Origin: an uncultured Thiotrichales bacterium
GTDB lineage: Bacteria > Pseudomonadota > Gammaproteobacteria > UBA4575
DNA: 64,000 bases
Reading direction: 5' to 3'
Assembly (NCBI GenBank): GCA_964614915.1
Contig: CAZTNC010000015.1
Span: 19,096 to 83,095 of the forward strand
Shown: positions 10,359-64,000 of the stretch, piece after piece
Layout: each line of letters begins with the position of its first letter
Position numbering within the stretch: the stretch's first letter is position 1
The notes under the pieces: model-generated
Seen by the model: the letters and a program-made list of their open reading frames with translations, nothing else
The model's database searches: none
What the model was told of the DNA's origin: nothing
Made by a program: the position numbers and the translations under genes

Positions 10359-11246
10359 ATGGATCGATACAAGACCAAGGAAGACGCCATTTGCTACTTT
10401 GAAAAAATGCGATGGGGTGACAAGCCCGTATGCGTCAAGTGTGGTTGTACAGGCAGGATTACGGCACAGAAGAAAGTCGGTGATTACTGGTGTGGAGACT
10501 GCCGGAGTTACTTTAATGCTTTCACTGGCACTCCACTAGAACGCAACAAGGTAGACCCTCGCAAGTGGATTTACGCCACCTACACCCTGATGACTTCACG
10601 GAAAGGTATTTCCAGCCTTCAACTGTCCAAAGAAATTGGTGTGCAGCAGCGCACTGCCTGGTACATGCTGCACCGGCTGCGTCTGGCCTGCGGCGACAAT
10701 ATGGAAGCCTTGCACGGTGAAGTTGAAATGGATGCAACATACATCGGTGGACTTGAAAGGAACAAGCACGCTGACAAAAGGTTGAAGTCCGGCAGAGGTA
10801 CGGTAGGTAAACAGGCTGTGCTCGGTATGAAACAGCGCGAAGGACGGGTAAAGGCCATATCGGTTGAGGGTGAAGACAAGGCAACTATTCACAGTGCTGT
10901 TCTTGCAAATATTGAAGTGGGTACGACTATCTATACAGATGATCATAGGGGCTACAAGAATATCGGCGGGACTATATACAAACATCAAACCGTCAAGCAT
11001 TCGGCAAAGGAATACGTGAATGGCATGGCTCATACCAACAGCGTCGAGTCTGTATGGTCAGTGCTCAAACGCGGCTTCAATGGTGTCTATCACAATTGGA
11101 GCAAAAAGCATTGCCAACAGTACGTGAACGAATTTACCTTTCGGCTGAATGAAGGGAATTGTGATCGAGACACCCAGGACCGGCTCGACGATCTGTTCAA
11201 GGCGATGTCGGGTAAAACGATAACTTATAGAGCGCTGACTTCTTGA
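10359..11246 (+). CDS. IS1595 family transposase (N-terminal zinc ribbon plus DDE_Tnp_IS1595)
   Basis: CVKCGC...CGDC zinc ribbon; IYTDDHRGY, HTNSVESVWSVLKR and YVNEFTFRLN motifs characteristic of IS1595/ISXO2-like transposases; ORF open from 10314, ATG at 10359. Confidence 0.85.
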   Translation: MDRYKTKEDAICYFEKMRWGDKPVCVKCGCTGRITAQKKVGDYWCGDCRSYFNAFTGTPLERNKVDPRKWIYATYTLMTSRKGISSLQLSKEIGVQQRTAWYMLHRLRLACGDNMEALHGEVEMDATYIGGLERNKHADKRLKSGRGTVGKQAVLGMKQREGRVKAISVEGEDKATIHSAVLANIEVGTTIYTDDHRGYKNIGGTIYKHQTVKHSAKEYVNGMAHTNSVESVWSVLKRGFNGVYHNWSKKHCQQYVNEFTFRLNEGNCDRDTQDRLDDLFKAMSGKTITYRALTS

Positions 11247-11279
11247 GCGTAGTCTTGCTGTTATTCAAACAGCGTTCAG

Positions 11280-11813
11280 TTAAGCGGAATTTTCTGCACG
11301 TTTAAAATCTTTTGCAGAAAACCGGTACCAGTTGCGGAACAAATGTTGCCACCACTTTACTGGTTGAAAATCATCTGAGCCAAACCCAAGCGCCTGTGAT
11401 GCGGCATTTCCGCACTCAGCATTAAGAGCGTGATAGATAGCAGGTTCATCCTCATAAACGCTGAGTATTTCTTGACGCCACTTATGTATTTCCTTTTCAT
11501 CAGCTTTATACACGTCGATCATCTTGGCAATTTCATAAAAACGCTTCGCAAGAAATTCATGGTTACGTGCCCTGTCTGCCAGGCCCCACACCATGTTGAT
11601 AGCCCCTATTGTAGTGGGTATAAGCATGATAAACATGGCAACTGCTTTGTTGGCTTCTGCAAGCTGCCACACGGCATAACTGCCTGACAGCAATACTGCT
11701 ACCATCAGCCACCTGTGCCATTTATCAAAAAAAGATCGTCGTGCAGTGTGGTAGCGAGCGCTACGGTCACAATCATGCAGAAAATCTTTTGCTTCCTGTT
11801 GCAGATCAGTCAT
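11280..11813 (-). CDS. two-TM membrane protein with about 100-aa cytoplasmic C-terminal domain (SLATT-like architecture)
   Basis: 177 aa; TM helices at about aa 35-51 and 57-78; start ATG overlaps the stop of the upstream peptide gene (ATGACTGA). Confidence 0.55.
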   Translation of the reverse strand: MTDLQQEAKDFLHDCDRSARYHTARRSFFDKWHRWLMVAVLLSGSYAVWQLAEANKAVAMFIMLIPTTIGAINMVWGLADRARNHEFLAKRFYEIAKMIDVYKADEKEIHKWRQEILSVYEDEPAIYHALNAECGNAASQALGFGSDDFQPVKWWQHLFRNWYRFSAKDFKRAENSA

Positions 11814-11949
11814 TTTTTCTCGGCGGTGTTACATCTCTTGGAGGTTCGTTAGAGTGAGTCTTATCTGGCGAATCATGTGCAGGTATATCTTTAGGTGGCG
11901 GCGGCGGCGGTTGGCGAACAGGTTGCGGCTCTTTTCTATCCTTTGACAT
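11806..11949 (-). CDS. proline-rich small protein (46 aa, MSKDRKEPQPVRQPPPPPPKD...)
   Basis: not in the supplied ORF track (<60 aa); AAGGAG Shine-Dalgarno 6 nt upstream of the ATG at 11949; stop overlaps the start of the downstream 2-TM gene. Confidence 0.35.
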   Translation of the reverse strand: MSKDRKEPQPVRQPPPPPPKDIPAHDSPDKTHSNEPPRDVTPPRKND

Positions 11950-11994
11950 GGTCATCTCCTTAAAAATACTAAGTTTAGTTTAACATTTTTTTAA

Positions 11995-12996
11995 TTATTC
12001 ATGAGGTAGAGGACAATCTATGCAGCCTCCTGGAGGTGGTGTAGCACCTGAATTGGAATTCTTGAAAGCGGCAGTTGACCCATAAAAAGCCCCGACAAAA
12101 CTTACAGGGCCTACATTGGTTATTGTCGCAGAACCTCCATGGGTTCCTGCCACCATGCGAGGGTTGCCATCAGAATCATCTTCAGACGAGAATCGACCAC
12201 CCCAACGTCCTCCCATATTGGCAACACCCAGTTGCGGATTCTGAAGCACCACCTCGCTTCCAGTAAACGAGCCGTCAGCATTGATGCTGGCGTCAATTAG
12301 CTGGAGTACGAATGGAGTCAGCACGTACCGGCCTCCCTGTAGCAATTCTATGTTCGTAATATCCCCGTCAACGGTCATGGCCCCGGTACTGAAGTCTGCT
12401 TCAAGAAACAGGCTGCCCCGGTACTCTCCCGTAGCCGAACCAAGTACGTAGGTGCCACCTGTAATCCCGTTGTAATCGACTTCACCTACGTTTACGGGAA
12501 TTGTCGGCTGTGTAGACGTTGAAAATTCTTCGCCGTCCACAAAAGCCCCGATTTCCACGCTTCCACCCGATGATCTGTAGGACCAGTACCCACCCGCCAG
12601 GTAGTCCGTAGCATCACCCGAATTCCAGTCCACCAACACACCGGCTCTAACGTTGCTTCCAACCAAAGTACCTGTCTGGGACATTCTTCCCGTAACTGAA
12701 CTGGTTTCAGGATTCTGGATGATGGAAGAACCGCTCGTATTCAATGTAAATGAACTACCTCCTGCACGGGCTACCGTGACTTCAAAACTTGATCCGGGTG
12801 TGAAACGTGTACTGATGGTGTCCGAAGCTACTGCCTGGATAATACTTGTCCCAAACACCGGTGGTGACATGGCGGCTCGTTCTGCGGCATCACTGTAGGA
12901 TACGGGTGGGTTGACAGGGGCAGGATCGCTTCCGCCTCCACCTCCGCCTCCACAGGCGGACAGCAGCACTAAGGCTGCACATAGAATTCTTCGCAT
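11995..12996 (-). CDS. surface-lipoprotein-like protein with fHbp/TbpB-type C-terminal beta-barrel signature
   Basis: lipobox LLSAC followed by a GGGGGGGS tether; G-YRG-LF-EADF-TG-M-VDGDI resembles the G.YRG..F...A.F.DF...G.I motif of neisserial fHbp/TbpB barrels; ATG at 12996 with a GAGG Shine-Dalgarno (ORF open from GTG 13035). Confidence 0.6.
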   Translation of the reverse strand: MRRILCAALVLLSACGGGGGGGSDPAPVNPPVSYSDAAERAAMSPPVFGTSIIQAVASDTISTRFTPGSSFEVTVARAGGSSFTLNTSGSSIIQNPETSSVTGRMSQTGTLVGSNVRAGVLVDWNSGDATDYLAGGYWSYRSSGGSVEIGAFVDGEEFSTSTQPTIPVNVGEVDYNGITGGTYVLGSATGEYRGSLFLEADFSTGAMTVDGDITNIELLQGGRYVLTPFVLQLIDASINADGSFTGSEVVLQNPQLGVANMGGRWGGRFSSEDDSDGNPRMVAGTHGGSATITNVGPVSFVGAFYGSTAAFKNSNSGATPPPGGCIDCPLPHE

Positions 12997-51180: not shown

Positions 51181-52359
51181 GTGGTGAAAATGCAGCCATC
51201 GCCCTCGGCCTATACTGAAGGCTATGTCTCTGCACGTCTGCATGACCTTGCCACTGCTGACAACTACATCAAGCATACCTGCATAGGTGATCCTGAGTTG
51301 GACCCTGCGATGGAAGAGATCTCCTCTCTTCCCAGTGAAGAGCTGCACCGGTTCATCGCTGCCGGAATTGAACAACAGACGGACGTCTTGCGTACCGCAC
51401 CACAAGCATTACGTGATGCTTTTGAGCGCATCAACGAACCCCCTTCCTGGCTTGACTACAAGGCCTTTGACCCAGCCATCCAGGCGTTCTACACCAAGGC
51501 AAACGACATACTGCTAGCACTGGTTACCGGAGTTCTGATCGAAGGCTTTTCGACGTTGATGAGTAAGCCGTTTGGCATTACGGGCCGTATGTTGCAAGAA
51601 ACAGATGTGAGCATCCGGCAATTGAAGCAAGTCAACCGGCATCTGCTTGAAATATTTTTCCCCGGCGGCCTGCTGAGAAAAGGTGACGGATGGAAGTTGT
51701 CCGTGCGCATCCGCTTCATTCATGCACGGGTGAGACAGTTGATGAAAGCTGCGGACGAGTGGGACACAAAGGCTTGGGGTACACCGATAAGTGCGGCACA
51801 CATGGGTTTTTCGACCGCCTTGTTTTCACATAGGCTGCTGGAACACTCGACGTCAGTAGGTGCCAACTATAACCGGGATGAGAAAGACAGCATCTTCGAG
51901 TTATGGCGCTACGTGGGTCATCTCATGGGTGTACCCGAAACAATCCTGTTCAACAGCCAGCAAGATGCGCGCAAGCTGTTCAAGATCGGCTTCCTGTGCG
52001 AGCCCGCTCCGGATGCCGACGCCGCAACCATATCCAATGCCCTGATACAGTCGATCCCCCTGGTTGCCGGATTGACAGACAGGGATGAGCAGGACTCCAT
52101 GAGGAACCTGGCCTACCGTATTTCAAGAGCACTGGTCGGAAGCCAGCTTGCCAACCAGTTGAAGTTCCCGAAAGGCAGCAGCACGGGCGTCCTGCAGGTG
52201 TACCGCGCCAAGCAACTCAGCGAACGGCTGATCAAGGATGTGCAACTGATCAAATCGGAAAACTTCCTGCAGCTCCTGAATGCTTCCCAATACGACGAGG
52301 TCGGCGTGAGCTATAAGATGCCCGACCATGTACATGCATCAAAATCAAGCGAGTGGTGA
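51181..52359 (+). CDS. MpaB-like oxygenase family protein (DUF2236)
   Basis: about 390 aa with the internal arginine-rich helix region (RIRFIHARVRQ) that I associate with DUF2236; GTG at 51181 or ATG at 51190. Confidence 0.5.
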   Translation: MVKMQPSPSAYTEGYVSARLHDLATADNYIKHTCIGDPELDPAMEEISSLPSEELHRFIAAGIEQQTDVLRTAPQALRDAFERINEPPSWLDYKAFDPAIQAFYTKANDILLALVTGVLIEGFSTLMSKPFGITGRMLQETDVSIRQLKQVNRHLLEIFFPGGLLRKGDGWKLSVRIRFIHARVRQLMKAADEWDTKAWGTPISAAHMGFSTALFSHRLLEHSTSVGANYNRDEKDSIFELWRYVGHLMGVPETILFNSQQDARKLFKIGFLCEPAPDADAATISNALIQSIPLVAGLTDRDEQDSMRNLAYRISRALVGSQLANQLKFPKGSSTGVLQVYRAKQLSERLIKDVQLIKSENFLQLLNASQYDEVGVSYKMPDHVHASKSSEW

Positions 52360-52498
52360 AACCAGCCTACCTGATTGTGATATTTGACATCGCTATGCTA
52401 CGGTTAATGAACATTTCGCGCTTCCCCGCACCCTGCAGGGCTGAAAATGATTGCCGCGCACACAATGTATCACTGACTGTGCTCTATTGGAGGAACTC

Positions 52499-53320
52499 AT
52501 GACTGGCGTTCACCCTCACCTGCGATCAGTGTTGCGACTGGCTGTCCTCTACCTGGTCCTGTCCGCCTTTTACGGAACGCCTGTGTATTCGGAGTCCCTG
52601 ACTCCGGAGGAAACAGGTTTGAAAATTGCGCGTGATACCCAAGCACGCGACCAGGGGTTTGGCAATCTAACGGCCCAGCAAACCATGACGCTTCGCAATA
52701 AGCAGGGGCAAGAGAGCCTGCGCCAACTCCGGGTAAAGGTCCTGGAAGTACCTGACGACGGGGACAAAAGCCTGTTTGTTTTTGATAACCCCCGCGACGT
52801 CCAAGGGACTGCACTGCTTATCCACGGTCACAAGGATACCCCGGACGACCAGTGGCTCTATTTACCTGCCTTGAAGCGGGTAAAACGCATCAGTTCTTCG
52901 AACCAATCCGGTTCTTTCATGGGGAGCGAGTTCGCCTATGAAGACATGAGCAGCCCGGAGGTAGAAAAATTCACGTACCGGTACCTGCGCGATGAGCCTT
53001 GTGGAGATTTGACCTGTACGGTCATGGAAAGGTACCCGGTCAATAAAAAATCGAGTTACAGTCGTCAAGTGATCTGGCAAGACAAAGACGCCTTGCGAGC
53101 ACAGAAAATCGAGTACTACGATCGCAAAAACGCGCACCTGAAAACACTTACCCTGACAGGCTACGAGCTGCATCTGGATCATTACTGGCGTGCCAGCCAG
53201 ATGACGATGGTGAATCATTTGACTGGGAAAAGTACAGTGATCACTTGGACAGATTATCAGTTTCAAACCGACCTCGATGATCGTGACTTTACGAAAACAG
53301 GGCTGAGACGAATACGTTGA
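52499..53320 (+). CDS. outer-membrane lipoprotein-sorting protein (LolA-like fold)
   Basis: signal peptide from the ATG at 52499 (GGAGG Shine-Dalgarno); DDQWLYLPALKRVKRISS...GSxFxYEDM pattern of the LolA_like family. Confidence 0.6.
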   Translation: MTGVHPHLRSVLRLAVLYLVLSAFYGTPVYSESLTPEETGLKIARDTQARDQGFGNLTAQQTMTLRNKQGQESLRQLRVKVLEVPDDGDKSLFVFDNPRDVQGTALLIHGHKDTPDDQWLYLPALKRVKRISSSNQSGSFMGSEFAYEDMSSPEVEKFTYRYLRDEPCGDLTCTVMERYPVNKKSSYSRQVIWQDKDALRAQKIEYYDRKNAHLKTLTLTGYELHLDHYWRASQMTMVNHLTGKSTVITWTDYQFQTDLDDRDFTKTGLRRIR

Positions 53321-53324
53321 TGTC

Positions 53325-54581
53325 GTGCAGCGCAGTCCCCTGCAAGTCCTGACCCGCGCGGCCTGGCTTTTGGCCATGGCCTTGGGTGCACAAGTATGTG
53401 CAGGCAGTGAAATTGACTACGAGGTCTTCGGGCACGTCGGGGTCGAAAATCGCTGGTACCCTGAAAATGCTGCCTATCCAGGTCAACCAGACCTTGCCAG
53501 CGGAATCGTTCTGGAACCGGAATTCTATTTTGAGAGTGTCGAGGGCTGGAGTTTCACCCTAATCCCATTCTTGCGTCATGACAGCGCTGATCCGGATCGC
53601 AGCCACGCAGACTTGCGGGAAGCGTATTTCCTGCTGCTCGGTGAAATTGGAGATGGCGAGTGGGAATTGCGCCTCGGCATGGACCGGGTGTTCTGGGGAG
53701 TTGTTGAGTCACATCACCTGGTGGATATCATAAATCAGACCGATTTGATTGAGCACCCTGATGAAGAGGTCGAACTGGGCCAACTCATGGCACATGCCAC
53801 CTGGTCCGGGAATTGGGGCGCAGCTGAGCTGTTTATCCTCCCACATCATCGGGAGCGTACCTTTCCAGGCCGCAAGGGTCGCCTGCGTTCATCACTTGTC
53901 GTGGAGGACGACGATCCTACCTACGAAAGTGGCGCGAAGGAATGGCACATGGATTTTGCGGTCCGGTACAGCCAGAACTTCGGGCCTTTTGATATAGGCG
54001 TGAGTTTTTTTAACGGCACCGGCAGGGACCCTCTTCTGCGACCTCAGGTCAGTGAACGACGCAACGGGGAACTGGTCTTAGTCCCGCATTATGAGCAAAT
54101 ACGCCAGTTTGGTATCGATGCACAGCTTACTACTGATGAGTGGCTGTTCAAGCTTGAAGCCATTCACCGCGCCGATTCCCAGAATTTGCGCTATGTGGAG
54201 GAGGACTATGCCGCATTTGTGATCGGTGCAGAGTACACGTTTTATTCTATACTCGGGACCGCTGCTGATTTTGGAGTCCTTGGCGAGTGGTGTTACGATG
54301 AGCGAGGCAAGGACGCAACGAACATTTTCGACGATGATCTACTCATCGGCATACGCGTAGCATTCAATGACATCCAGAATACAGAGATTTTCTCCAGCCT
54401 TCTGAAAGATCGGGACTATTCCACCAGTGCCTTTGTGATCGAGTTCAACCGCCGGATTTCTGACCGGTGGTCCGCAAATCTTGAACTTTTCTCACTGTTC
54501 AATGTAGAAAAAAAAGATACTCAGTTTGACCCTATCCGACGCGATAGCTTTTTGGAATTTCGCCTGAACTACAACTTTTAA
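53325..54581 (+). CDS. putative outer-membrane beta-barrel protein
   Basis: signal peptide, alternating amphipathic strands, C-terminal ...LNYNF with terminal Phe; 4 bp downstream of the LolA-like gene; GTG start. Confidence 0.5.
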   Translation: MQRSPLQVLTRAAWLLAMALGAQVCAGSEIDYEVFGHVGVENRWYPENAAYPGQPDLASGIVLEPEFYFESVEGWSFTLIPFLRHDSADPDRSHADLREAYFLLLGEIGDGEWELRLGMDRVFWGVVESHHLVDIINQTDLIEHPDEEVELGQLMAHATWSGNWGAAELFILPHHRERTFPGRKGRLRSSLVVEDDDPTYESGAKEWHMDFAVRYSQNFGPFDIGVSFFNGTGRDPLLRPQVSERRNGELVLVPHYEQIRQFGIDAQLTTDEWLFKLEAIHRADSQNLRYVEEDYAAFVIGAEYTFYSILGTAADFGVLGEWCYDERGKDATNIFDDDLLIGIRVAFNDIQNTEIFSSLLKDRDYSTSAFVIEFNRRISDRWSANLELFSLFNVEKKDTQFDPIRRDSFLEFRLNYNF

Positions 54582-54667
54582 CCAGGCTTGCGGCCAAGGC
54601 TTGGAAGTGCAAAACCAAAGAACTGCCACGGTCCCGGATGGTCGCGACGAAACACCCAGATACCTGG

Positions 54668-55663
54668 TTATCCAGCCTGGATGACGTTCCGCAAGGAGGG
54701 TGGAAGGCCAAAGCGAACATTCTCGACAATACCATCCATATTCGAGATTTCCAGGTCAGCAAACTCCCTCAGCTTGCCAATCAACTCCTGCACCAGTTCT
54801 TCAGGCGTCGATGCACCTGCCGTGATTCCAACGGCCTCAACTCCCTGTAACAACAGAGGATCAATTTTTGCCGGGTCTTCGACCAGGTGACTCGGGGTGC
54901 CGCTGTCATTGCTGACTTCACATAAGCGATTTGAATTGGAGCTGTTATGGGCCCCTACCACCAGCATCAGATCAACCTGAGCGGCAAGAGCACGGACAGC
55001 GGCCTGTCGATTCTGGGTTGCATAGCAGATGTCCTTGGTATTTGGACCTGCAATGTTAGGAAACTTCTGCTTCAATGCCTTGATGATATCCCGTGTATCA
55101 TCGACCGATAGGGTAGTCTGGGTCACATAGGCTACCTTGTCCGGGTCACCCACTTCCAACATCTCTACATCTTTTGTGTTGCTGACTAGATGGACAGGCC
55201 CTGGGATTTGACCCAGTGTGCCTTCAACCTCAGGATGATTCTCGTGACCTATCAAGATTACATCGTAGCCTTTTGCAGCATAACGCTGGCCTTCCTTGTG
55301 CACCTTGGAAACCAACGGGCATGTAGCATCAAGTGACTCAAGGCCGCGCTCCGATGCATCTTGCTGAACCTTTTTTGACACACCATGAGCGCTGAACACG
55401 GCAATTGCATTGTCTGGAATCTGGTGAATTTCTTCTACAAACCGCACGCCCTTCGCTTTCAGGTTTTCCACAACCCTTCGGTTGTGGACGATTTCGTGCC
55501 GTACGTATACGGGAGGCTCATAAAGTTTTAGTGCTCCTTCTGCAATTGCAATCGCACGGTCTACGCCAGCACAAAAGCCACGTGGCTGAGCCAAAATCAC
55601 ACGTATTTTCTGTCTCTCCCGATCTGGACTATCAGGGGAGTTCACTTGTGGTAATCCATCCAT
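54668..55663 (-). CDS. ispH: 4-hydroxy-3-methylbut-2-enyl diphosphate reductase
   Basis: three conserved Cys regions (GFCAGV...) and full-length IspH/LytB similarity. Confidence 0.9.
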   Translation of the reverse strand: MDGLPQVNSPDSPDRERQKIRVILAQPRGFCAGVDRAIAIAEGALKLYEPPVYVRHEIVHNRRVVENLKAKGVRFVEEIHQIPDNAIAVFSAHGVSKKVQQDASERGLESLDATCPLVSKVHKEGQRYAAKGYDVILIGHENHPEVEGTLGQIPGPVHLVSNTKDVEMLEVGDPDKVAYVTQTTLSVDDTRDIIKALKQKFPNIAGPNTKDICYATQNRQAAVRALAAQVDLMLVVGAHNSSNSNRLCEVSNDSGTPSHLVEDPAKIDPLLLQGVEAVGITAGASTPEELVQELIGKLREFADLEISNMDGIVENVRFGLPPSLRNVIQAG

Positions 55664-55737
55664 GAGTATGTTCTCAACTGGTTTTGCTCACAGTTCTGTA
55701 AAAATCGTGGCCAAAAATTTCATCACTGCCATGCATT

Positions 55738-56802
55738 TTAAGACCTTGCCTGCTCAAGGTGCCTTCCCTCAACTCGTGGAAGATTGTAAGTTAATATCCC
55801 GAATAGCAACTTCAAAGCCAGATTTGACCGCACCACGGCACTAGTCACGATAGTGACCATCCACACGCTGCGACGTGAAATCTTCACCTCTTGACCACTC
55901 TTGAATCCAGGTGTCGCATGGATACGACGCAGGGTCAATATGGCCATCCCCAGCGCCCACAGGCAATGAAGGCGAATGCCGGTTTCGCGAGGAGGGATAA
56001 TCATTATAAATCGTAATGCATTCGAAAGATGATGCCGGGCGATGGCTACCAACTCAAACAGCCCCTTGGTAAAGCCAGGATCGCGCTGCGCGGTAGACAG
56101 GGAACTCAACTCGAAACCTGCTGCAAGAAAAATATCCTGTGGCAGCCAGCATGCTCCACGGCGTCGGTCATCCCATATATCTTTCAGTATATTTGTCATC
56201 TGTAGACCTTGGCCAAAAGAAACTGAAAGCGCAAGCAATTCCTCACGTCGCTCATTGATTTTTTCAGAATAATCGCAGAACAACTCGGTGAGCATCTCGC
56301 CTACGACCCCGGCAACGTAATAACAGTATTGATCAAGGTCAGGCAGGTCATTCAGGCCCTTTACTGTTGCCCTTTGCTGAAATTCTGCCATCCCTCGCGA
56401 CATGATTTTCACGCAGCGCTCAAGTGCATTGCGCTGAGCATCACTAAATCCCCTCGTGATACGAATCACTCGAGCAGTATGTGCAATCAGATCATGTTCA
56501 CTTTTTGTCGTTGACGAAGACAACAGCTCACCGAGATCGTGCGCAAAGGGATCAGGCTCCTGCCGACCTGCAACAATCTCGGCAAAGCGCTCAGAGAACT
56601 CACGTTTTTGTTCTGCAGAAAGTGCGGGTTCGTCTTCGATAGTATCCGTGATCCGGCATAAAAGATATGCGTTGCCTACGACATCACATAATCCATCCGG
56701 AAGCTGCGGAATGGTCAAGGCAAATGTGCGAGATACCCCTTGCAAAGCCTCTGCCTGATAGGCAAAGTCATCGTTCGTCAACCCACTCAAGGCGGACACC
56801 AT
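55738..56802 (-). CDS. squalene/phytoene synthase family protein (HpnC/HpnD-like)
   Basis: two Asp-rich regions and YCYYVAGVVGEM of trans-isoprenyl diphosphate synthase head-to-head enzymes. Confidence 0.75.
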   Translation of the reverse strand: MVSALSGLTNDDFAYQAEALQGVSRTFALTIPQLPDGLCDVVGNAYLLCRITDTIEDEPALSAEQKREFSERFAEIVAGRQEPDPFAHDLGELLSSSTTKSEHDLIAHTARVIRITRGFSDAQRNALERCVKIMSRGMAEFQQRATVKGLNDLPDLDQYCYYVAGVVGEMLTELFCDYSEKINERREELLALSVSFGQGLQMTNILKDIWDDRRRGACWLPQDIFLAAGFELSSLSTAQRDPGFTKGLFELVAIARHHLSNALRFIMIIPPRETGIRLHCLWALGMAILTLRRIHATPGFKSGQEVKISRRSVWMVTIVTSAVVRSNLALKLLFGILTYNLPRVEGRHLEQARS

Positions 56803-57447
56803 TAGCTTAATCTCTATTTCGCTTCACAGTATGAGTTGCATTGTACACTCGCACTGGTTAATAGGAAATTGGGATAAACTTCAACGCAAAGTTTGAGTGA
56901 AAAATCTTCCAGGCATCCGGAATACGAATTACTCAGCAATCTTTCGGAAATCCTCGCAGAGCCGATCTGAATTTGAGCGTTTCCTGTTTCCTGAATCACA
57001 GAACTGCATGACCCGGATTCCAGAAGACTGACCCTGGAATTGGCTCTCTTTTCATGCGATTCATCATTATGCAGTCGCTTGATGCAAAGCATGGTTCACC
57101 CAAGCTTAGCCAAACAGGGATTAAGCCAGAAACAACATTCATGGGGTTTGGATAGGGCCTCCCTCGTCCCGGTATATCGCTACTTGACGTTTACTCAAAA
57201 GCCCTTGCCTGCCAGGTAGTTGAAGGGCACTAAAGGAAGCTGCCAGCCTTCTCCGGCCCGCATTTGACCTGATTCAGCCACGCCAAGAGTCTTGGCTCTC
57301 TGACCTCGGGTACTGGCACCTGTTTTGTAGCCGGGAGGGGACATTCAGACATAGTGAAAGTTTAGTAGATAAGGTACAATAAATTTTGTATAGTCTCTGC
57401 CAAACCAATCTCTCTGGAGAAGTACCATTCAAAATCATCAGGTAGAA

Positions 57448-57783
57448 TTGCAGGTCGATCAGGTTGAGGGAACCGCACTGATCATAAGCGTGACAGGCCG
57501 TATCGACGGTGTGAATGCTCAGGAATTTTACAACAACCTCAACAAGGAAATTGATGGTTCTGACAATCCGGTAGTACTGGATCTTGAAAATCTGTCCTAC
57601 ATCAGTAGTGCAGGTTTGCGTTCGATCCTGCTTATTGCAAAAACCCTCAAGGGTAAAAATACAAAATTCATGCTCTGCTCCCTGCCCGAGCCGATAAAAG
57701 AAATTGTTGAGATAGCAGGTTTTGACAAGATTATCGATGTGCTTCAATCCCGAACTGCAGCAGTAGAAGCCATAAAGGGTTAA
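57448..57783 (+). CDS. STAS-domain anti-sigma-factor antagonist (SpoIIAA/RsbV-like)
   Basis: DLxxLSYISSAGLRSIL with a phosphorylatable Ser; TTG start. Confidence 0.75.
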   Translation: MQVDQVEGTALIISVTGRIDGVNAQEFYNNLNKEIDGSDNPVVLDLENLSYISSAGLRSILLIAKTLKGKNTKFMLCSLPEPIKEIVEIAGFDKIIDVLQSRTAAVEAIKG

Positions 57784-58005
57784 CACACTTACAGAAAAGC
57801 CAGTGCGACGGCCCTGCAGTCATCCCCCTCCTGAATAGAACTACCAAGCTGCTGATAGCACACTAGGTTGAGAAGCCTCGTGAAGTATAAGCAGCACATG
57901 CCGGCATCACCAGTTCAGCCAAAGGCCTGTCTGGTGTTACAGGATTAAACTTCCCGCATCAGAGAAATTTTCGTTGTGGCCCAAGAACTGAACCTAACGG
58001 ATGAA

Positions 58006-58326
58006 ATGACTGATGGTGTCCTGGTCATCCATGTAGGCGGCCGTGTTGACGGTGTCAATGCACAGGAATTTCAGGGGGAACTTGACCTGAGAGTCCAGGG
58101 CACTGATGGGCCTGTTATTCTGGATTTCAAGAACCTTACCTACATCAGTAGTGCAGGTTTGCGTTCAATCTTGCTGGTTGCAAAAGTGTTCAGGGACAAA
58201 AATACGAAATTTGTGTTGTGTTCGCTGCCAGAAACAGCCCTGCAAGTCATACGGATTTCCGGCTTCGACAAAATCATCGAAATACAAGAGTCCCGCTCTT
58301 TGGCCATGGCTGCTGCCACAAATTGA
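58006..58326 (+). CDS. STAS-domain anti-sigma-factor antagonist, paralogue 2
   Basis: same DFKNLTYISSAGLRSILL motif; about 55% identical to the paralogue at 57448-57783; ATG at 58006 (GTG at 57976 is an alternative). Confidence 0.7.
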   Translation: MTDGVLVIHVGGRVDGVNAQEFQGELDLRVQGTDGPVILDFKNLTYISSAGLRSILLVAKVFRDKNTKFVLCSLPETALQVIRISGFDKIIEIQESRSLAMAAATN

Positions 58327-58330
58327 CTCC

Positions 58331-60535
58331 TCATGAAGGTGCAGCGGCTACACCCTCTCCATCAGCAGATTCTCCAGCAGTATCCTTTGTCTCATGGAAG
58401 ACCGGTTCCACCGGTAACACGACAATCATGTCCGTGTACTCACCTTCCTTAGTATCCACACGGATCTCTCCACCATGCTCCCGCATGATGTCGTTGGACA
58501 GAGACAGACCCAGGCCTGTTCCCTTATCAGGCGGCTTCGTTGTATAGAATGGATTGAAAATACGTTCCAACGCCGATTCGGGAATACCGTTGCCATTGTC
58601 CCGGACATGAACCTCTACATGGTCCCCGACCTGCAGGGTGCTCAACTTGAGTATCGGTTGATATTCCTTCCCGGCATCACCGCCTTCCTCTAGCAGATTT
58701 TTTCTTTTCTCATCAGTGGCATAGCAGGCATTTGTCACCAAATTCAGGAACACACGACCGAGATCTTGTGGACGAACCATGATCTCCCGCAGCCCTTCCT
58801 CGTAGTCTTCCTGGATTTCCAGTTGAAATTCCGTGTCAGCAGCACGGGCACTATGGAATGCAAGCAGCGCATGATCGTTCAACAGTACGTTCAGATCGGT
58901 TTCCTGCCAGTCCCCGCCACCACGACCCATTTTCAGCATGTCCATCACAATCCTGTTTGCACGCTTACCATGCTCATGAATGCGTTGCAGATTTCCTGTA
59001 AGGTCGCCGGCCACCTCCTCGACGAATTCCGGATCGTATTCATCTTCTCCATTTCCTTCCCCAGCTCTGCTTTTGGCCACTTCTTCCAACAGCTCTTCCA
59101 GCAGTTCTTGCGAGACCTCCGAAAAGTTCATGATGAAGTTCATTGGATTCTTGATTTCATGGGCAACCCCTGCCGTTAACTGGCCAAGTGCAGCAAGCTT
59201 CTCGCGCATCACAATCTGATCCTGTGCACGCTCCAATTCCTCATTGGTTTTTGCCAGTTCCTCGTTTTTCCCTTTCAACTCTTCGGCGAGCGTTTCCACC
59301 AGGTTAAGACGTTGTACTTCAAGCGCATTATTCCTGAACACATCCAGTGCCTTGGCCAGCTGTGCAATCTCATCGCGGCCATCAACGTCAATGGCAACTT
59401 CCAGATCGCCGCCAGCCATTTGCTGCATCTGATTCGAAATTCTATCCAGACGCTTGATCAAGCGGCGCTGTACGAGCAGCCAGACAAACAGGAATGCGCC
59501 TGTGATACTCACGAGATTGACAATCAGCAGTACCGTTGTGCTGGTGGCCGTTGCCGTGGTTGCCTTGTCGGCCATCTCCCCTGCAGCCATGCTGGAGTCA
59601 TCCACAAAGCTCTCTACCTGTGCAACAACGTCAATTCCCAGGATCTGGCTGTCATTGAGCAGATCAACCAGTTCCTCATCAACTGAGAGCTCCCTGAAAC
59701 GCAAATCAAAGCCGTTGTTCTCCCTTCTGCCAACCGATAACAGCTCAACAAAAGCCGTAGATAACCGGCCGTGGACTGCTGTATTTTTAAGCGCATCAAG
59801 CGACCGTTCGGCAAGGCCGACGGTCGCTTCAAACTGTTCTCGCAAAGGCTCCAGCAACGCTTTATCGGTCACGGTAAACGCAGTTGCCAGCAACTGTGTG
59901 GCGATGGCAGCCGCTTCACGCAATTCAACCAGTCGGCGATACGTTTGAAATTCCTGTTCTGAAAAATGAACGGAAGCTGGTGACCGTGCCTCATCGAGAG
60001 ATCTGTAGCCTGTCATCGTGTAGAACATCTGATCATCAATCTCTTCGATCAAAATCGCTGTCAATTTGCCTTGGACCACATGGAGTTCATCTCTGAGATC
60101 GATAATATGCTGGCGAACATCGAAGCGTTCCCTGACAAGCAGCTTGACCTCGCCAATATTTCGCACAATGCCAGCCCCGCCGGACTGAATCTGTTGTGCC
60201 CTTGCGTCTTTTCCCTGGTTTGCCAGCATGATTGAAAGCTGCGCCTCGAACTCATCTGCCTGCCAACCTGTTGTTGCGGCAATAGTTTCAAACTCTTCTG
60301 GTGTGGCTACTGTCGTAAGACGTGGCACTGCTGCAACAAGCGATGCTGTTTGCTGGGCAATCGCAAACGCGGACGTCATCTCCGGGACACTTTTCTCGCT
60401 GACGTTTTGCTGGATTTTTCCGATGTAGTCGAGAATGAAAAGAGCAAGCAGGCTAATTACGATGATCAGCGCAACGGCGCCACCGAAACCCACATAAAGC
60501 TGTGTAGAAATTCGACTCCAAAGTTTTGCAGGCAT
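58331..60535 (-). CDS. sensor histidine kinase with large periplasmic sensor domain (HAMP-HisKA-HATPase_c)
   Basis: TM, about 320-aa periplasmic region, TM, HAMP, coiled coil, H-box AGVAHEIKNPMNF, G-boxes (GTGLGLSL). Confidence 0.85.
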   Translation of the reverse strand: MPAKLWSRISTQLYVGFGGAVALIIVISLLALFILDYIGKIQQNVSEKSVPEMTSAFAIAQQTASLVAAVPRLTTVATPEEFETIAATTGWQADEFEAQLSIMLANQGKDARAQQIQSGGAGIVRNIGEVKLLVRERFDVRQHIIDLRDELHVVQGKLTAILIEEIDDQMFYTMTGYRSLDEARSPASVHFSEQEFQTYRRLVELREAAAIATQLLATAFTVTDKALLEPLREQFEATVGLAERSLDALKNTAVHGRLSTAFVELLSVGRRENNGFDLRFRELSVDEELVDLLNDSQILGIDVVAQVESFVDDSSMAAGEMADKATTATATSTTVLLIVNLVSITGAFLFVWLLVQRRLIKRLDRISNQMQQMAGGDLEVAIDVDGRDEIAQLAKALDVFRNNALEVQRLNLVETLAEELKGKNEELAKTNEELERAQDQIVMREKLAALGQLTAGVAHEIKNPMNFIMNFSEVSQELLEELLEEVAKSRAGEGNGEDEYDPEFVEEVAGDLTGNLQRIHEHGKRANRIVMDMLKMGRGGGDWQETDLNVLLNDHALLAFHSARAADTEFQLEIQEDYEEGLREIMVRPQDLGRVFLNLVTNACYATDEKRKNLLEEGGDAGKEYQPILKLSTLQVGDHVEVHVRDNGNGIPESALERIFNPFYTTKPPDKGTGLGLSLSNDIMREHGGEIRVDTKEGEYTDMIVVLPVEPVFHETKDTAGESADGEGVAAAPS

Positions 60536-60551
60536 TGCGCTTCTCTCAAAT

Positions 60552-61778
60552 TTATTGCGAATGCGAGGCCCCGGTCTGCGATACAACAGAGGTCAGGGAT
60601 GTCACGGGTGAATACTCGCCATTGGCGCCAATTGCCGTCAGGAAAACGCTGTCCGACCCCTGGTTGTCGTCCTTTCCATAACGCAGTTTGAACCCATCCA
60701 GACTGATGCTGTCACCGGTTCGCAGCACTGAATCGATACAGCCGCGATTAATCCGCTTGTCACATTGAGAGACTACGTAAGCCGCCAGGCGTCCTGCCAA
60801 ATACCCTTCGAACGATATAAAACCCGGTTCAATGGCTGGATCATATGCTTTAAGTGCCGAGCGGTACGAAGCCGATGCGTTTATCGTATCCCCTGTCGGA
60901 AAGGGTACAACCTGCGTCACCAAAACACCTGACCCCCCGGCACCCAGTTCCTTTGCCAGGGCATTGCTGCCCACGAAAGACAGGGTCATGAAAATTGGGT
61001 CCATCCCGAGACGTCGCGCCCACATGATAAAGGTTGCAGTCGGTTTATAGGGGCCCACAATGATCACGGCCTGTGGTTCAATCGCGCGCAGGTCGAGAAG
61101 TGCCGTCTTCACCGCAACCGTGTTCCTGGGAAACACACCCGTGCCAACAGCGGAAAGCTCCCGACGCTCAAGGGCCAGAAGAACACCCTGCAGTCCCGCA
61201 AGCCCGAAGGAGTCATCCTGGTAGAGGATGGCAATGCGATCGTAGCCCATGTCAGTGGTCAACCGCTCGACCATCTCCTCGGTTTCCTGATAGTACGAGG
61301 CCCGAAGGTTGATGACAGTGTGACGGGCATTGTCACGCAGGTATTCTGCACCTGTCATAGGCGCTATGTAAGGCACATCGTTTGTCTCAGTGACCGGGAC
61401 AGCCGACTGGGAAGTAGGTGTGCCTACTGCACCTATAAGGGCAAAAACACCCTCTTCGATCAGCTGCTGCGTATTTGAGACGGCCGCCTCTGGCTCATAC
61501 GCATCGTCCAGTGAGCGCAATTCCAGGCGGCGTCCATTAACGCCACCTTTGTCATTGACCTCTTTGAAGGCGGCAAGAATTCCTGCCCTCATGCTTTTAC
61601 CAAGTTCACCTGCAGGGCCGCTGAAAGCAGCAGATTGCCCAAACAGAATGCGTTCGCTGTTTACACCAGGGGTAGTGATTATGCTGTCCTCAACCTCACT
61701 CACCGCAACACTTGCAAATATCGCAGCAAAAAGTGTGGTAAAGGCTTTTCCGAGAGATAGTCCGCGCAGAGCCTGCAC
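60552..61778 (-). CDS. periplasmic ligand-binding protein (LivJ/Peripla_BP_6-like ABC-type substrate-binding fold)
   Basis: signal peptide; type I PBP pattern; directly upstream of the sensor kinase in the same operon. Confidence 0.7.
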   Translation of the reverse strand: MQALRGLSLGKAFTTLFAAIFASVAVSEVEDSIITTPGVNSERILFGQSAAFSGPAGELGKSMRAGILAAFKEVNDKGGVNGRRLELRSLDDAYEPEAAVSNTQQLIEEGVFALIGAVGTPTSQSAVPVTETNDVPYIAPMTGAEYLRDNARHTVINLRASYYQETEEMVERLTTDMGYDRIAILYQDDSFGLAGLQGVLLALERRELSAVGTGVFPRNTVAVKTALLDLRAIEPQAVIIVGPYKPTATFIMWARRLGMDPIFMTLSFVGSNALAKELGAGGSGVLVTQVVPFPTGDTINASASYRSALKAYDPAIEPGFISFEGYLAGRLAAYVVSQCDKRINRGCIDSVLRTGDSISLDGFKLRYGKDDNQGSDSVFLTAIGANGEYSPVTSLTSVVSQTGASHSQ

Positions 61779-61782
61779 TTTA

Positions 61783-62202
61783 TTAGATCTTCTTAACCAT
61801 GGTTAAATGGTTGCGCTCACTGTTGCGCTGGTAACGCAATTCCGTCATCAACTGCTTGGCCAGCCGGATACCGGCGCCACCAATGCTGCGTTCTTCAAGT
61901 GAACTTTCGATATCCAGGTCGGGTGCATCATGCAATGGATCAAAGGGGCACCCATCATCCATGATCTCGACGGTGATGGTTTCACCCTCCCTTGAGAGCT
62001 TGATCTCAACTTCATGCTCCAGATCATCGTCATGGGCATAACTGACTACATTCGTAAAGAGTTCCTCCAGAGCAAGCTGGATCTGAAGCAATGCATCCAT
62101 GGGAAATCCGTGCTGCTCGCCAAATTCCTCCAGCGCGGCCTCGATCGTGCGGATCTCCTCCATTCGATTGACAACAGTCAGTGTGCGTGAAGCTTGCATC
62201 AT
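61783..62202 (-). CDS. anti-sigma regulatory factor (RsbW/SpoIIAB-like Ser/Thr kinase, HATPase_c)
   Basis: 139 aa, N-box EELFTNVVSYA and G-box GGAGIRL. Confidence 0.7.
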   Translation of the reverse strand: MMQASRTLTVVNRMEEIRTIEAALEEFGEQHGFPMDALLQIQLALEELFTNVVSYAHDDDLEHEVEIKLSREGETITVEIMDDGCPFDPLHDAPDLDIESSLEERSIGGAGIRLAKQLMTELRYQRNSERNHLTMVKKI

Positions 62203-62217
62203 TCTACTCCAGCTTTT

Positions 62218-63375
62218 TCAGGTGACCCGCAGAACAAGGCAAGTGATATCGTCGGATTGGGGGGTTTCTCCTGCAAACTCCCTGACCGACTGGAACACCG
62301 TATCGGTAACATCCTTGGCACTCCCGAATGAACTGTTTCGAAAAACCTCGAAAAACCTGTCCATCTCGAACAATTCACCATCGCCCTTCTCTGCTTCCGA
62401 AACCCCGTCTGTATAAAACACAATCATGGAGCCAGATTCCAGAGAAACTGTTTTTTCCTGATACTCCAAATCCGGCATAACGCCCAGCGCAGTTCCTTCC
62501 GTTGATTCCAGCAGCTCAATGGTCTTGTCCGGCTTGACTACCACAGGCAGGTTATGTCCGCCGTTCGAATACACAAGCTCTTTGGTCTGCGGATCATAAA
62601 TACCGTATAACAGGGTTACAAAAGTCATGTCGGCATTATTATCTGCCAGCATCCCATTCACTTGCTTTAGGACATTGGCCGGGGAGCTGGAAGTCGCAGC
62701 ACAGGCCTTCAACAGCGTACGGCTGGCCATCATGAACATTGCAGCCGGCACCCCCTTGTCAGACACATCTGCAATCACTACACCGATCCTGCCATCAGAG
62801 AATTCGTACACATCAAAAAAATCGCCGCCCACAGAGCGTGCCGGCACCATACTTGCGTAGAGATTGAATTCCTCAGAAGAGGGAAACGACATGGGGAGAA
62901 TGCTCTGCTGCATCTTCCTGGCTACATCGAGCTCGTTTTGAAGTGCAACCAGCTTGTCGCGTGTGCTCAGCGCCTGTCGCCATAGCGTGAGATTTTCAAT
63001 CGTGCGCTCGATGGTGACCTTCAGATCCGTGAAATCAATGGGTTTGGTGACAAAATCAAATGCACCCCGATTCATTGCAGTCCTGATATTCTCCATGTCT
63101 CCGTATGCAGAAACCATGACTGCACGTATATCAGGATCGACGTCCGGTATTTGTGCCAACAGGGTTAGCCCGTCCATGACAGGCATATTGATATCAGACA
63201 GCACGATGTCATACTTGCCATTTTCGCGCAGGAGCTTCAGGGCTTCAGCACCGTTGTGTGCAAACTCAAAAATGTAACGACCGCGGCGAACTTCCCGCCT
63301 CATTTTCTGCAGCATAAGCTGCTCTAAGTCCACCTCGTCATCGACAACGAGTATCCGGACATGATCATCGCTCAC
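62218..63375 (-). CDS. response regulator receiver fused to PP2C/SpoIIE-type serine phosphatase (RsbU-like)
   Basis: REC domain with a phospho-acceptor Asp (VLSDINMP), then PP2C metal-binding Asp motifs (GGDFFDV...DVSDKG...DG). Confidence 0.85.
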   Translation of the reverse strand: MSDDHVRILVVDDEVDLEQLMLQKMRREVRRGRYIFEFAHNGAEALKLLRENGKYDIVLSDINMPVMDGLTLLAQIPDVDPDIRAVMVSAYGDMENIRTAMNRGAFDFVTKPIDFTDLKVTIERTIENLTLWRQALSTRDKLVALQNELDVARKMQQSILPMSFPSSEEFNLYASMVPARSVGGDFFDVYEFSDGRIGVVIADVSDKGVPAAMFMMASRTLLKACAATSSSPANVLKQVNGMLADNNADMTFVTLLYGIYDPQTKELVYSNGGHNLPVVVKPDKTIELLESTEGTALGVMPDLEYQEKTVSLESGSMIVFYTDGVSEAEKGDGELFEMDRFFEVFRNSSFGSAKDVTDTVFQSVREFAGETPQSDDITCLVLRVT

Positions 63376-63785
63376 TTACTACCCCATTTCACAATTTGGA
63401 TACCCAAGCTGGCATCAATCAGTTACACGCGCTGTTGATCCACCTGTATTGAAAAACCCTCAAGAAATCTTGCATGCATGACTTCCATCAAACCACGCGG
63501 ATTATATCAGTAAAACCGACCACAGGGAGATAGAAACAGCCAATACCCGAGTTTGTTCGCAGTTTGATTTGCAATCCACTTTTTGTGCAGACACATACTT
63601 TTGATAACTTGCCCTGCCAAACAAGCCTTGCGAGGCTGTCCTGCCCACTCTTAATCCGCTTGCGTTTATCGCTTACCGCGGGTAATCATTAATCTACGGG
63701 AAGTCATTCCAGATATCCTATGTATTTTGTGCGGCTATGTATTTCATGCAGCCCATGAAGCATTTGCATGTACCGGAGAAATGTT

Positions 63786-64000
63786 ATGGGAAACCGAACT
63801 CGGTTCTATATCGGTGGTGAGTGGGTCAAACCCTCGGCAAGTCAAACCTCAGACGTCATCAATCCTGCTACAGAAGAGGTCATTGGCTGTGTACCAATGG
63901 GCAGTCAAGAAGATCTGGACAAGGCAGTTGCCGCCGCCAAGGCGGCTTTCGTCTCCTATTCCCAAACAACACGGAAGGAAAAGGTTGAACTGCTGGAAGA
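63786..64000 (+). CDS. aldehyde dehydrogenase family protein (5' partial, runs off the window)
   Basis: N-terminus FYIGGEWV...VINPATEEVIG typical of NAD(P)-dependent aldehyde dehydrogenases. Confidence 0.65.
   Translation, partial: MGNRTRFYIGGEWVKPSASQTSDVINPATEEVIGCVPMGSQEDLDKAVAAAKAAFVSYSQTTRKEKVELLE

Follow-up and report, generated by a model that had tools for sequence, protein, structure and literature searches.

A predicted signalling cassette that joins a LivJ-type binding protein and a TorS-like sensor kinase to a separate-protein partner switch in uncultured Gammaproteobacteria

Partner switches are common in Gram-negative bacteria, and their inputs and targets are mostly unknown. 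A stretch of 64,000 nucleotides (nt) from an uncultured Thiotrichales bacterium of the Gammaproteobacteria (contig CAZTNC010000015.1), hereafter called the window, carries a locus at which the input is explicit: genes for two STAS proteins, an RsbW-like kinase and a PP2C phosphatase lie together with genes for a soluble binding protein of the periplasm and for a sensor kinase that resembles TorS. Do these six genes form one signalling unit, what would it read, and where would its output go? The answer that we favour, with a probability of about 0.6, is that they form a self-contained cassette in which a TorT/TorS-like input is joined to a separate-protein partner switch of the RsbY/RbaY type, with an output that passes through an unlinked target. 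The six open reading frames (ORFs) and their domains, as assigned in an original prediction made from the sequence alone, were borne out by ORF calls, Pfam and NCBIfam at the following positions of the window.

63375 to 62218, minus strand: REC-PP2C response-regulator phosphatase, 385 residues, with Asp60 and the motifs GGDFFD, ADVSDKG, TDG and DDIT
62202 to 61783, minus strand: RsbW/SpoIIAB-like serine kinase (HATPase_c_2), 139 residues, with an N-box (E46..N50), DDGCPF and GGAG
61778 to 60552, minus strand: exported LivJ-type solute-binding protein (Peripla_BP_6), 408 residues, with a signal-peptide-like N-terminal segment
60535 to 58331, minus strand: sensor histidine kinase, 734 residues from ATG 60535, the ORF being open up to TTG 60586
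57976 to 58326, plus strand: STAS2, single-domain, 116 residues, phospho-Ser59, convergent on the kinase gene
57448 to 57783, plus strand: STAS1, single-domain, 111 residues (perhaps 118 from ATT 57427), phospho-Ser54
57350 to 57447, plus strand: STAS1 leader and promoter-like region, with TAGATA-17-TATAGT at 57366-57394 and GGAGAA at 57416-57421

The partner switch and its periplasmic input

The REC-PP2C protein matches PF00072 (7e-24) and the full profile of PF07228 SpoIIE (4e-55). Its Asp60 aligns with the acceptor aspartate of Pseudomonas aeruginosa RssB (3eq2) and of Spo0F, and its GGDFFD, ADVSDKG and TDG motifs align with the PP2C domain of RssB. The protein ends right after PF07228 (residue 384 of 385), and the RsbW-like kinase is encoded by a separate 139-residue ORF 15 nt downstream. 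This small protein matches PF13581 HATPase_c_2 (1e-27) and aligns with Bacillus subtilis RsbW (6m36), its best solved match, across the N-box (E..N), DDGxxF and GGxG. Its scores against the NCBIfam equivalogs are far under the cut-offs (33-37 bits against 135-155 overall; 36.6 against 145 for RsbW, 33 against 135 for SpoIIAB), and by sequence we class it as RsbW-like and not as an RsbW orthologue. Both STAS proteins match PF01740 (2e-19 for STAS1 and 2e-18 for STAS2) and exceed the cut-off of TIGR00377. The two points on which the original prediction most depended withstood detailed alignment: the N, G1 and G2 boxes of the RsbW-like protein are intact relative to RsbW 6m36, and STAS1 Ser54 and STAS2 Ser59, which align with SpoIIAA Ser58, are kept in every orthologue. 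All catalytic and phospho-acceptor residues of the six genes are intact. The locus thus holds the STAS protein with its serine, the small GHKL kinase and the PP2C phosphatase of a partner switch, and no target.

The binding protein belongs to PF13458 Peripla_BP_6 (3e-49). Its nearest solved structure is an uncharacterised LivJ-like protein (4kv7, 1e-64), and it scores 64 bits against PRK15404, for a cut-off of 477. In LivJ, we take the ligand contacts to be Ser79, Thr102, Tyr202 and Glu226, where Glu226 contacts the ammonium group and the hydroxyl positions contact the carboxylate. In the binding protein, Thr at 79 and Tyr at 202 are kept and Ala-Ala-Thr becomes Met-Thr-Gly; hydroxyl residues are retained at the carboxylate-contact positions. 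The ligand is probably small and carboxylate-bearing, and probably not a standard alpha-amino acid. The loops of the binding pocket are invariant across the labelled phyla and the binding protein is the most conserved protein of the cassette between distant hosts (62-65% identity, against 36-43% for the fastest-diverging, RsbW-like protein), which makes it likely that a single ligand is conserved across hosts. In the cassette loci with annotation, none of the called genes encodes the permease or ATPase of an ATP-binding cassette (ABC) transporter, nor does any family of transporters recur next to the cassette.

The kinase consists of a first transmembrane segment, a helical periplasmic domain, a second transmembrane segment and the Pfam domains HAMP, HisKA (AHEIKNP) and HATPase_c. 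The periplasmic domain, put at about 320 residues in the original prediction, is corrected to about 295. The H-box is ZraS-like and the ATP-binding boxes are complete. The kinase scores 133 bits against TIGR02956 (cut-off 676) and 21.7 bits against PF21689 TorS_sensor_domain, under the cut-off of 27; precomputed PF21689 matches exist in homologues. An AlphaFold model (15 sequences) has a pLDDT of about 85-96 over the periplasmic part. When this model was compared with the PDB, the top six matches were all TorS sensor domains, TorS-TorT complexes included, with E values from 4e-7 to 1e-5, TM-scores to the target of 0.66-0.85 and a clear gap to the next matches. The modelled periplasmic domain thus adopts a TorS-like fold of two four-helix bundles, and the input would therefore work like TorT/TorS, with a LivJ-type binding protein. 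TorS itself is a hybrid kinase: it carries REC and HPt domains and signals to TorR, a DNA-binding regulator of the OmpR type. The kinase of the window, unlike TorS, has neither a REC nor an HPt domain by Pfam and is linked to the REC-PP2C protein; no response regulator other than this one was called in the window cassette or in the cassette loci with annotation. Kinases that depend on solute-binding proteins are an established class that includes TorS/TorT, in which TorS reads its ligand through the docked binding protein (PMC8050422). The TorT-TorS pair, which senses trimethylamine N-oxide, resembles the cassette in having a TorS-type sensor beside a dedicated binding-protein gene without transporter genes, whereas TorT is of the Peripla_BP_1 type and the binding protein of the window is of the LivJ type, Peripla_BP_6 (PMC8050422).

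The four minus-strand genes are separated by 15, 4 and 16 nt, in the order REC-PP2C, RsbW-like, binding protein, kinase. The proposal that they form an operon keeps the support of this tight spacing; the overlap between the kinase and binding-protein genes is lost, as ATG 60535, where every orthologue begins, is the most likely start of the kinase and leaves a gap of 16 nt. STAS1 may start 21 nt earlier than called, at the non-canonical ATT 57427: a conserved GGAGAA lies 5 nt before this codon, which is TTG in L009 (loci are designated by L numbers), and the upstream codons are conserved as amino acids. About 100 nt of the STAS1 leader are kept in all gammaproteobacterial relatives, L009 included. 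Promoter and terminator counts in the window are not above shuffled expectation, and the TAGATA-17-TATAGT match taken alone is not above chance. An Rfam search of positions 56500-64000 (E <= 1) returned no RNA element. The STAS2 and kinase genes run towards each other, and 4 nt separate their stop codons (58326-58331); the distance is 4 nt in L004 and 6 nt in L010 and L014. A bidirectional terminator at this junction was considered and rejected, with folding z-scores of -0.3 to -1.6, no conserved structure and no hairpin. As this tight convergent junction, which has no detectable terminator hairpin, is kept in the relatives examined, antisense overlap of the two transcripts is likely.

Conservation and spread of the cassette

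We compared the window with its relatives and with the 80 top loci of a metagenome scan made with a binding-protein alignment, using our own ORF calls. Linkage was counted over 28 non-redundant, independent cassette loci, of which several that lack genes are truncated contigs. The REC-PP2C, binding-protein and kinase genes occur in the same order in all 28; an RsbW-like gene accompanies them in 22 and a STAS gene in 20. With S for STAS, P for REC-PP2C, W for the RsbW-like gene, B for the binding protein and K for the kinase, the orders S-P-W-B-K, W-S-P-B-K and P-B-K alone are found, while P-W-B-K with a convergent S is the layout of the window and of Dadabacteria. Neighbouring cassette genes overlap by 4 nt in L016, L018, L021 and L022. 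By their record labels, the hosts include, besides the Gammaproteobacteria of the window lineage, Dadabacteria/Thermodesulfobacteriota (L010, L014, L015), Chloroflexi (L016, L017), Rhodospirillaceae (L018, L019) and Spirochaetaceae (L020); L021 and L022 are unlabelled long contigs. The flanking genes differ in each labelled lineage, and the cassette of L022 is intact although its RsbW-like protein is only 38% identical. Chance adjacency is excluded by this comparison, on which the six genes are judged to be a real signalling unit. The order conserved across labelled phyla, together with the 4-nt overlaps, is the main support for the wiring that we propose.

Closer to the window, synteny extends in L002-L009 over the entire locus and takes in the SQS_PSY and ispH genes that flank it. 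The nearest relatives are metagenome-assembled genomes (MAGs) of uncultured Gammaproteobacteria, some of them closed chromosomes of 1.85-2.0 Mb, and the neighbours mgsA, lolA, ftsK, trxB, aat and ispH of the window follow a gammaproteobacterial order. In 8-10 species-level genomes, each of the six ORFs is unbroken. Among the syntenic genomes, the median ratio of nonsynonymous to synonymous substitution rates (dN/dS) is 0.038 for REC-PP2C, 0.043 for STAS1, 0.050 for the RsbW-like gene, 0.056 for the kinase, 0.090 for the binding protein and 0.179 for STAS2. With values of 0.04-0.18, all six genes are therefore under purifying selection and functional. An exhaustive search with the kinase sensor domain gave 535 clusters at 50% identity, of which the ten nearest full-length ones are metagenome proteins or MAGs; it yielded no cultured carrier that could be linked to published work.

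The two STAS paralogues have had different histories. The window, L004 and L006 encode one and the same STAS1 protein. In a neighbour-joining tree, gammaproteobacterial STAS1 and the single STAS of Dadabacteria group together with 100% support, STAS2 is their sister clade on a long branch, and STAS1 and STAS2 together stand apart from the STAS proteins of the other labelled phyla, again with 100% support. On this topology, STAS1 is assigned as the conserved paralogue, orthologous to the lone cassette STAS of Dadabacteria, and the duplication is placed in the sub-lineage whose STAS genes converge on the kinase gene. The copy number is one in Dadabacteria, two in the window and three in L026, where three tandem STAS ORFs (10985-12115), one of which looks truncated, are convergent to the kinase gene and all carry YISSAGLR. 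STAS2 evolves about four times faster than STAS1, and the constraint on it is relaxed yet real. It is possible that the two paralogues give branching outputs, as had been suggested for them; in Chlamydiota the copy number of RsbV likewise varies (PMC11619594).

The Dadabacteria cassette proteins are 69-81% identical to those of the window. For the syntenic L009, the values are 72-82% for the cassette and 65-84% for housekeeping genes, and the IspH of the unrelated host L021 is 49% identical to that of the window. Since the Dadabacteria cassette is as similar to that of the window as is the syntenic one of L009, and shares with the gammaproteobacterial cassettes the derived convergent-STAS layout, sequence comparison indicates a transfer between the Dadabacteria and gammaproteobacterial lineages, a reading that hinges on the taxonomic labels of the records. 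Recent transfer visible in base composition was rejected: the G+C content of the cassette tracks that of the host over a range of 0.44-0.68, so the transfers are not recent.

In this sample, every source-checked contig with the full cassette derives from a sponge microbiome, that of Petrosia, Sarcotragus or Aplysina (LXNJ, LXNI, MKWU), and none of the top 80 loci comes from the seawater assembly of the same study (PMC5099237). As a description and not as a statistical test, these contig sources suggest an association of the cassette with sponges. The ligand could then point to a chemical cue of symbiosis.

Output, mechanism and alternatives

Where would the output go? We screened all ORFs of at least 50-60 residues in the 64-kb window and in 102 related loci by phmmer, with RpoS and RpoE as queries; SigB served as positive control and was detected at 2e-15. 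No sigma-70-family ORF was found except one housekeeping rpoD, in L035. The original prediction had reported no target sigma factor in the window, and this extends to every related locus screened; the region beyond 63375, where it had advised looking for a sigma partner, holds a divergent aldehyde dehydrogenase gene. Its description of the module as complete has to be withdrawn, because no alternative sigma factor or other output gene is linked to the cassette in any locus examined. Unbiased clustering of the flanking ORFs gave no family present in more than 4 of the 28 loci (Amt, Alpha-E, IspH). It seems that the cassette has passed in one piece from one labelled phylum to another, with no output gene in it; if so, its target must be something that most bacteria share or readily supply.

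In the scheme that we infer, in every binding and phosphotransfer step as well as in ligand, direction of regulation and target, the exported LivJ-type protein would capture a small periplasmic ligand and dock on the kinase at its helical, TorS-like sensor domain, altering the autophosphorylation of the kinase. The kinase would pass phosphate to Asp60 of the REC-PP2C protein, whose REC phosphorylation state would set the PP2C activity, in either direction. The RsbW-like kinase would phosphorylate STAS1 Ser54 and STAS2 Ser59, from which the PP2C domain would strip the phosphate, and unphosphorylated STAS would bind the RsbW-like protein. The output would leave the cassette solely by protein-protein contact with a target encoded elsewhere. 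Of the sensor-to-partner-switch logic of the original prediction, the set of STAS, RsbW-like and PP2C proteins and its coupling to a two-component system are retained. Activation of the phosphatase by REC phosphorylation is not, since the direction cannot be inferred: the phosphatase activity of RsfR is lowered by phosphorylation (PMC10950880).

That a REC-PP2C protein acts on STAS has precedents in RsbKY and RsfSR (PMC10950880). In the RsbK-RsbY-RsbV-RsbW-SigB system of Bacillus cereus and the RsfS-RsfR-RsfB system of Mycobacterium smegmatis, as proposed here, a kinase signals to a REC-PP2C protein and this to STAS, with a separate RsbW-type kinase (PMC10950880). They differ in their sensors, which are of the CHASE3 type (and hybrid in RsbK) and lack a partner binding protein, where the window has a TorS-like sensor and a LivJ-type binding protein. 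They also control a known sigma factor, SigB or SigF, with sigB lying in the B. cereus cluster, and none is linked to the window cassette. The RbaV/RbaW/RbaY system of Rhodobacter capsulatus likewise has separate STAS, RsbW-like and REC-PP2C proteins and no identified cognate sigma factor; its authors considered the STAS protein, which is dominant, a possible output (PMC3999984). In that system, however, no kinase is known to feed RbaY, rbaY is unlinked from rbaVW, there is one STAS protein, and the locus has no binding protein or kinase. In architecture the cassette matches the separate-protein type of RsbY, RbaY and RsfR, a likeness drawn from the layout.

HsbR and CrsR have REC, PP2C and kinase fused in one polypeptide. 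The original prediction had likened the locus to HsbR/HsbA or CrsR/CrsA, and this comparison is imprecise, since the REC-PP2C protein and the 139-residue kinase of the window are encoded by separate genes and there is no Hpt relay. What these systems, which are likewise gammaproteobacterial, do share with the cassette is a REC-controlled PP2C and an RsbW-like kinase, both directed at a STAS protein encoded next to them. The Hpt relay input of the P. aeruginosa HptB-HsbR-HsbA pathway, and the HsbA and CrsA targets FlgM/HsbD and RpoS, have no counterpart at the window locus. Chlamydial RsbU, described as a sensor phosphatase, combines a sensor domain and PP2C on one membrane protein, while the window splits sensing into binding protein, kinase and REC; the chlamydial genes are moreover scattered. 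The likeness of the RsbU-RsbV1/RsbV2-RsbW system of Chlamydia to the cassette lies in its host-associated, reduced genome, its two STAS proteins of unequal conservation with one RsbW, its sensing of an extracytoplasmic signal and its lack of a dedicated alternative sigma factor (PMC11619594, PMC4552016). Both modules of the cassette are known singly, but a portable set of five genes that unites them and lacks an output gene was not described in any source that we found; literature searches turned up nothing specific on a cassette of binding protein, TorS-like kinase and REC-PP2C or on partner switches of sponge symbionts. Were the cassette to prove ordinary, it would still be a clean example of TorT/TorS-type sensing joined to RsbY-type partner switching.

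The gene content, the intact catalytic residues, the linkage across lineages, the TorS fold and the lack of a linked target are what the analysis shows. By analogy with SypA, HsbA and probably RbaV, we give a slight edge to one or both unphosphorylated STAS proteins as the active output, over an RsbW-like protein that retains a sigma factor. This preference is weak, resting on analogy and on the variation in STAS copy number, and it is one of the points that count against our proposal. Another is the replacement of LivJ Glu226 by Ser in the binding protein. A further one comes from five or six related loci (L020, L027, L031, L058/L059 and L083), where REC-PP2C, binding-protein and kinase genes occur with no RsbW-like or STAS gene nearby, so that the phosphatase need not act solely on a linked STAS protein. 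In a classical anti-sigma arrangement, which we hold to be possible rather than probable, the RsbW-like protein would sequester a sigma-70-family factor encoded elsewhere, and unphosphorylated STAS would free it; the factor could be the primary one, as a growth throttle of the kind proposed for Chlamydia RsbW and sigma-66, or an alternative one such as FliA or RpoS. The size of the protein, a full-length GHKL protein like RsbW or SpoIIAB, would suit this role, as would its best solved match, which is RsbW in entries of the SigB complex, and its rapid divergence, expected of a protein adapting to a host partner. A cassette that works after transfer between phyla needs a universal target, for which a primary sigma factor is suitable, and in Chlamydia, with two RsbV paralogues, RsbW binds sigma-66 (PMC4552016, PMC11619594). 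There is also one locus, L035 (2411-6123), from a sponge metagenome, in which REC-PP2C, RsbW-like, binding-protein and kinase genes lie directly downstream of dnaG-rpoD, the usual position of rpoD. This adjacency was seen once and is probably a coincidence. Against the anti-sigma reading, about 100 loci show no alternative sigma factor linked to the cassette, and in the window lineage nlpD is not followed by rpoS, as it usually is in Gammaproteobacteria (L001 1047-3441, from the same organism past the end of the window, and L009 1671-4141). The low RsbW and SpoIIAB equivalog scores argue in the same direction, as does the closest studied proteobacterial system, where no interaction of RbaW with a sigma factor was found, RpoD being among those tested (PMC3999984).

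It is very unlikely that two independent systems merely lie side by side, with the kinase serving an unlinked DNA-binding regulator, or the binding protein an ABC transporter, and the REC-PP2C protein fed from elsewhere. Parts of the cassette do occur apart: genes for more distantly related binding proteins (48-57% identity), many of them from soil-type contigs, adjoin unrelated kinases with no partner switch or PP2C nearby, and trios of REC-PP2C, RsbW and STAS exist without binding protein or kinase, in L013 and in the VWY operon of Rhodopseudomonas palustris (PMC3999984). However, the order of REC-PP2C, RsbW-like gene where present, binding protein and kinase is invariant over the 28 loci and several labelled phyla, with 4-nt overlaps, and the RsbW-like gene sits between those of the two supposed systems. 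Neither another response regulator nor an ABC permease or ATPase is annotated at the cassette loci, and the kinase itself lacks REC and HPt domains. The small genomes, the raised dN/dS of STAS2 and the truncated look of one L026 copy would fit a decaying remnant in a reduced symbiont genome that has lost its signalling; the six intact ORFs, the full set of catalytic residues, the dN/dS of 0.04-0.09 (0.18 for STAS2) and the conserved STAS1 leader make this most improbable. A bolder proposal takes the five-gene cassette as a mobile host-sensing device, spread over at least four or five sponge-dwelling phyla, which reads one sponge or community metabolite through its invariant pocket and throttles symbiont growth through a universal target, for instance the primary sigma factor; the universality of the target is argued from the lack of an output gene. 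We find this reading doubtful, and retain the self-contained cassette with an unlinked target as the better account.

Neighbouring genes

Beside the cassette in several lineages, and absent from the window lineage, are genes for CP_ATPgrasp_1 and Alpha-E proteins (once with a transglutaminase) and for ammonium transporters. They lie at the following places.

L016: 11628-14912
L018: 11684-14147 and 4354-5757
L022: 12124-13509
also in L030, L032, L051 and L061

As Amt and CP_ATPgrasp/Alpha-E are found in 4 loci each of 28 and never in the window lineage, we rejected them as general parts of the cassette; they may reflect a nitrogen-related context or co-transfer.

In Dadabacteria, the cassette is embedded among sterol-type lipid genes (L014 1474-7608, L015 14992-20018), which encode an ERG4_ERG24 reductase, two Sterol_MT_C methyltransferases, a GPP34-cytochrome P450 fusion, an amine oxidase, an MMPL transporter and a KshA-like Rieske oxygenase. 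An ispH gene and an MPAB_Lcp_cat oxygenase-like gene lie on the STAS side of the cassette both in the window (51181-56802) and in the unrelated L021 (754-5596); L021 has an MMPL gene as well, and in the window an SQS_PSY gene (squalene/phytoene synthase) adjoins STAS1. The intergenic region between these last two genes (56803-57447) exceeds its counterparts in L004 and L006 by about 300 nt, with an extra stretch at approximately 56880-57180. About 100 nt beside each flanking gene are conserved, and an unsupported ORF of 92 residues (56814 to 57092) lies inside the extra stretch. Further away, an ORF of 418 residues without a Pfam match (53325-54581) follows a LolA_like/DUF1329 gene and is 71% identical in L009.

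In L001 and L009, a run of pcm, a VTT-domain gene and nlpD gives way to a DUF498 gene on the opposite strand. Another partner switch, made up of an RsbW-like protein, STAS and a GAF-PP2C phosphatase, is found in L023 (4955-16465) after a 1012-residue HEAT/cNMP-binding protein, and adjoins contractile-injection-system genes (Pvc16_N, phage sheath and gp19-like tube).

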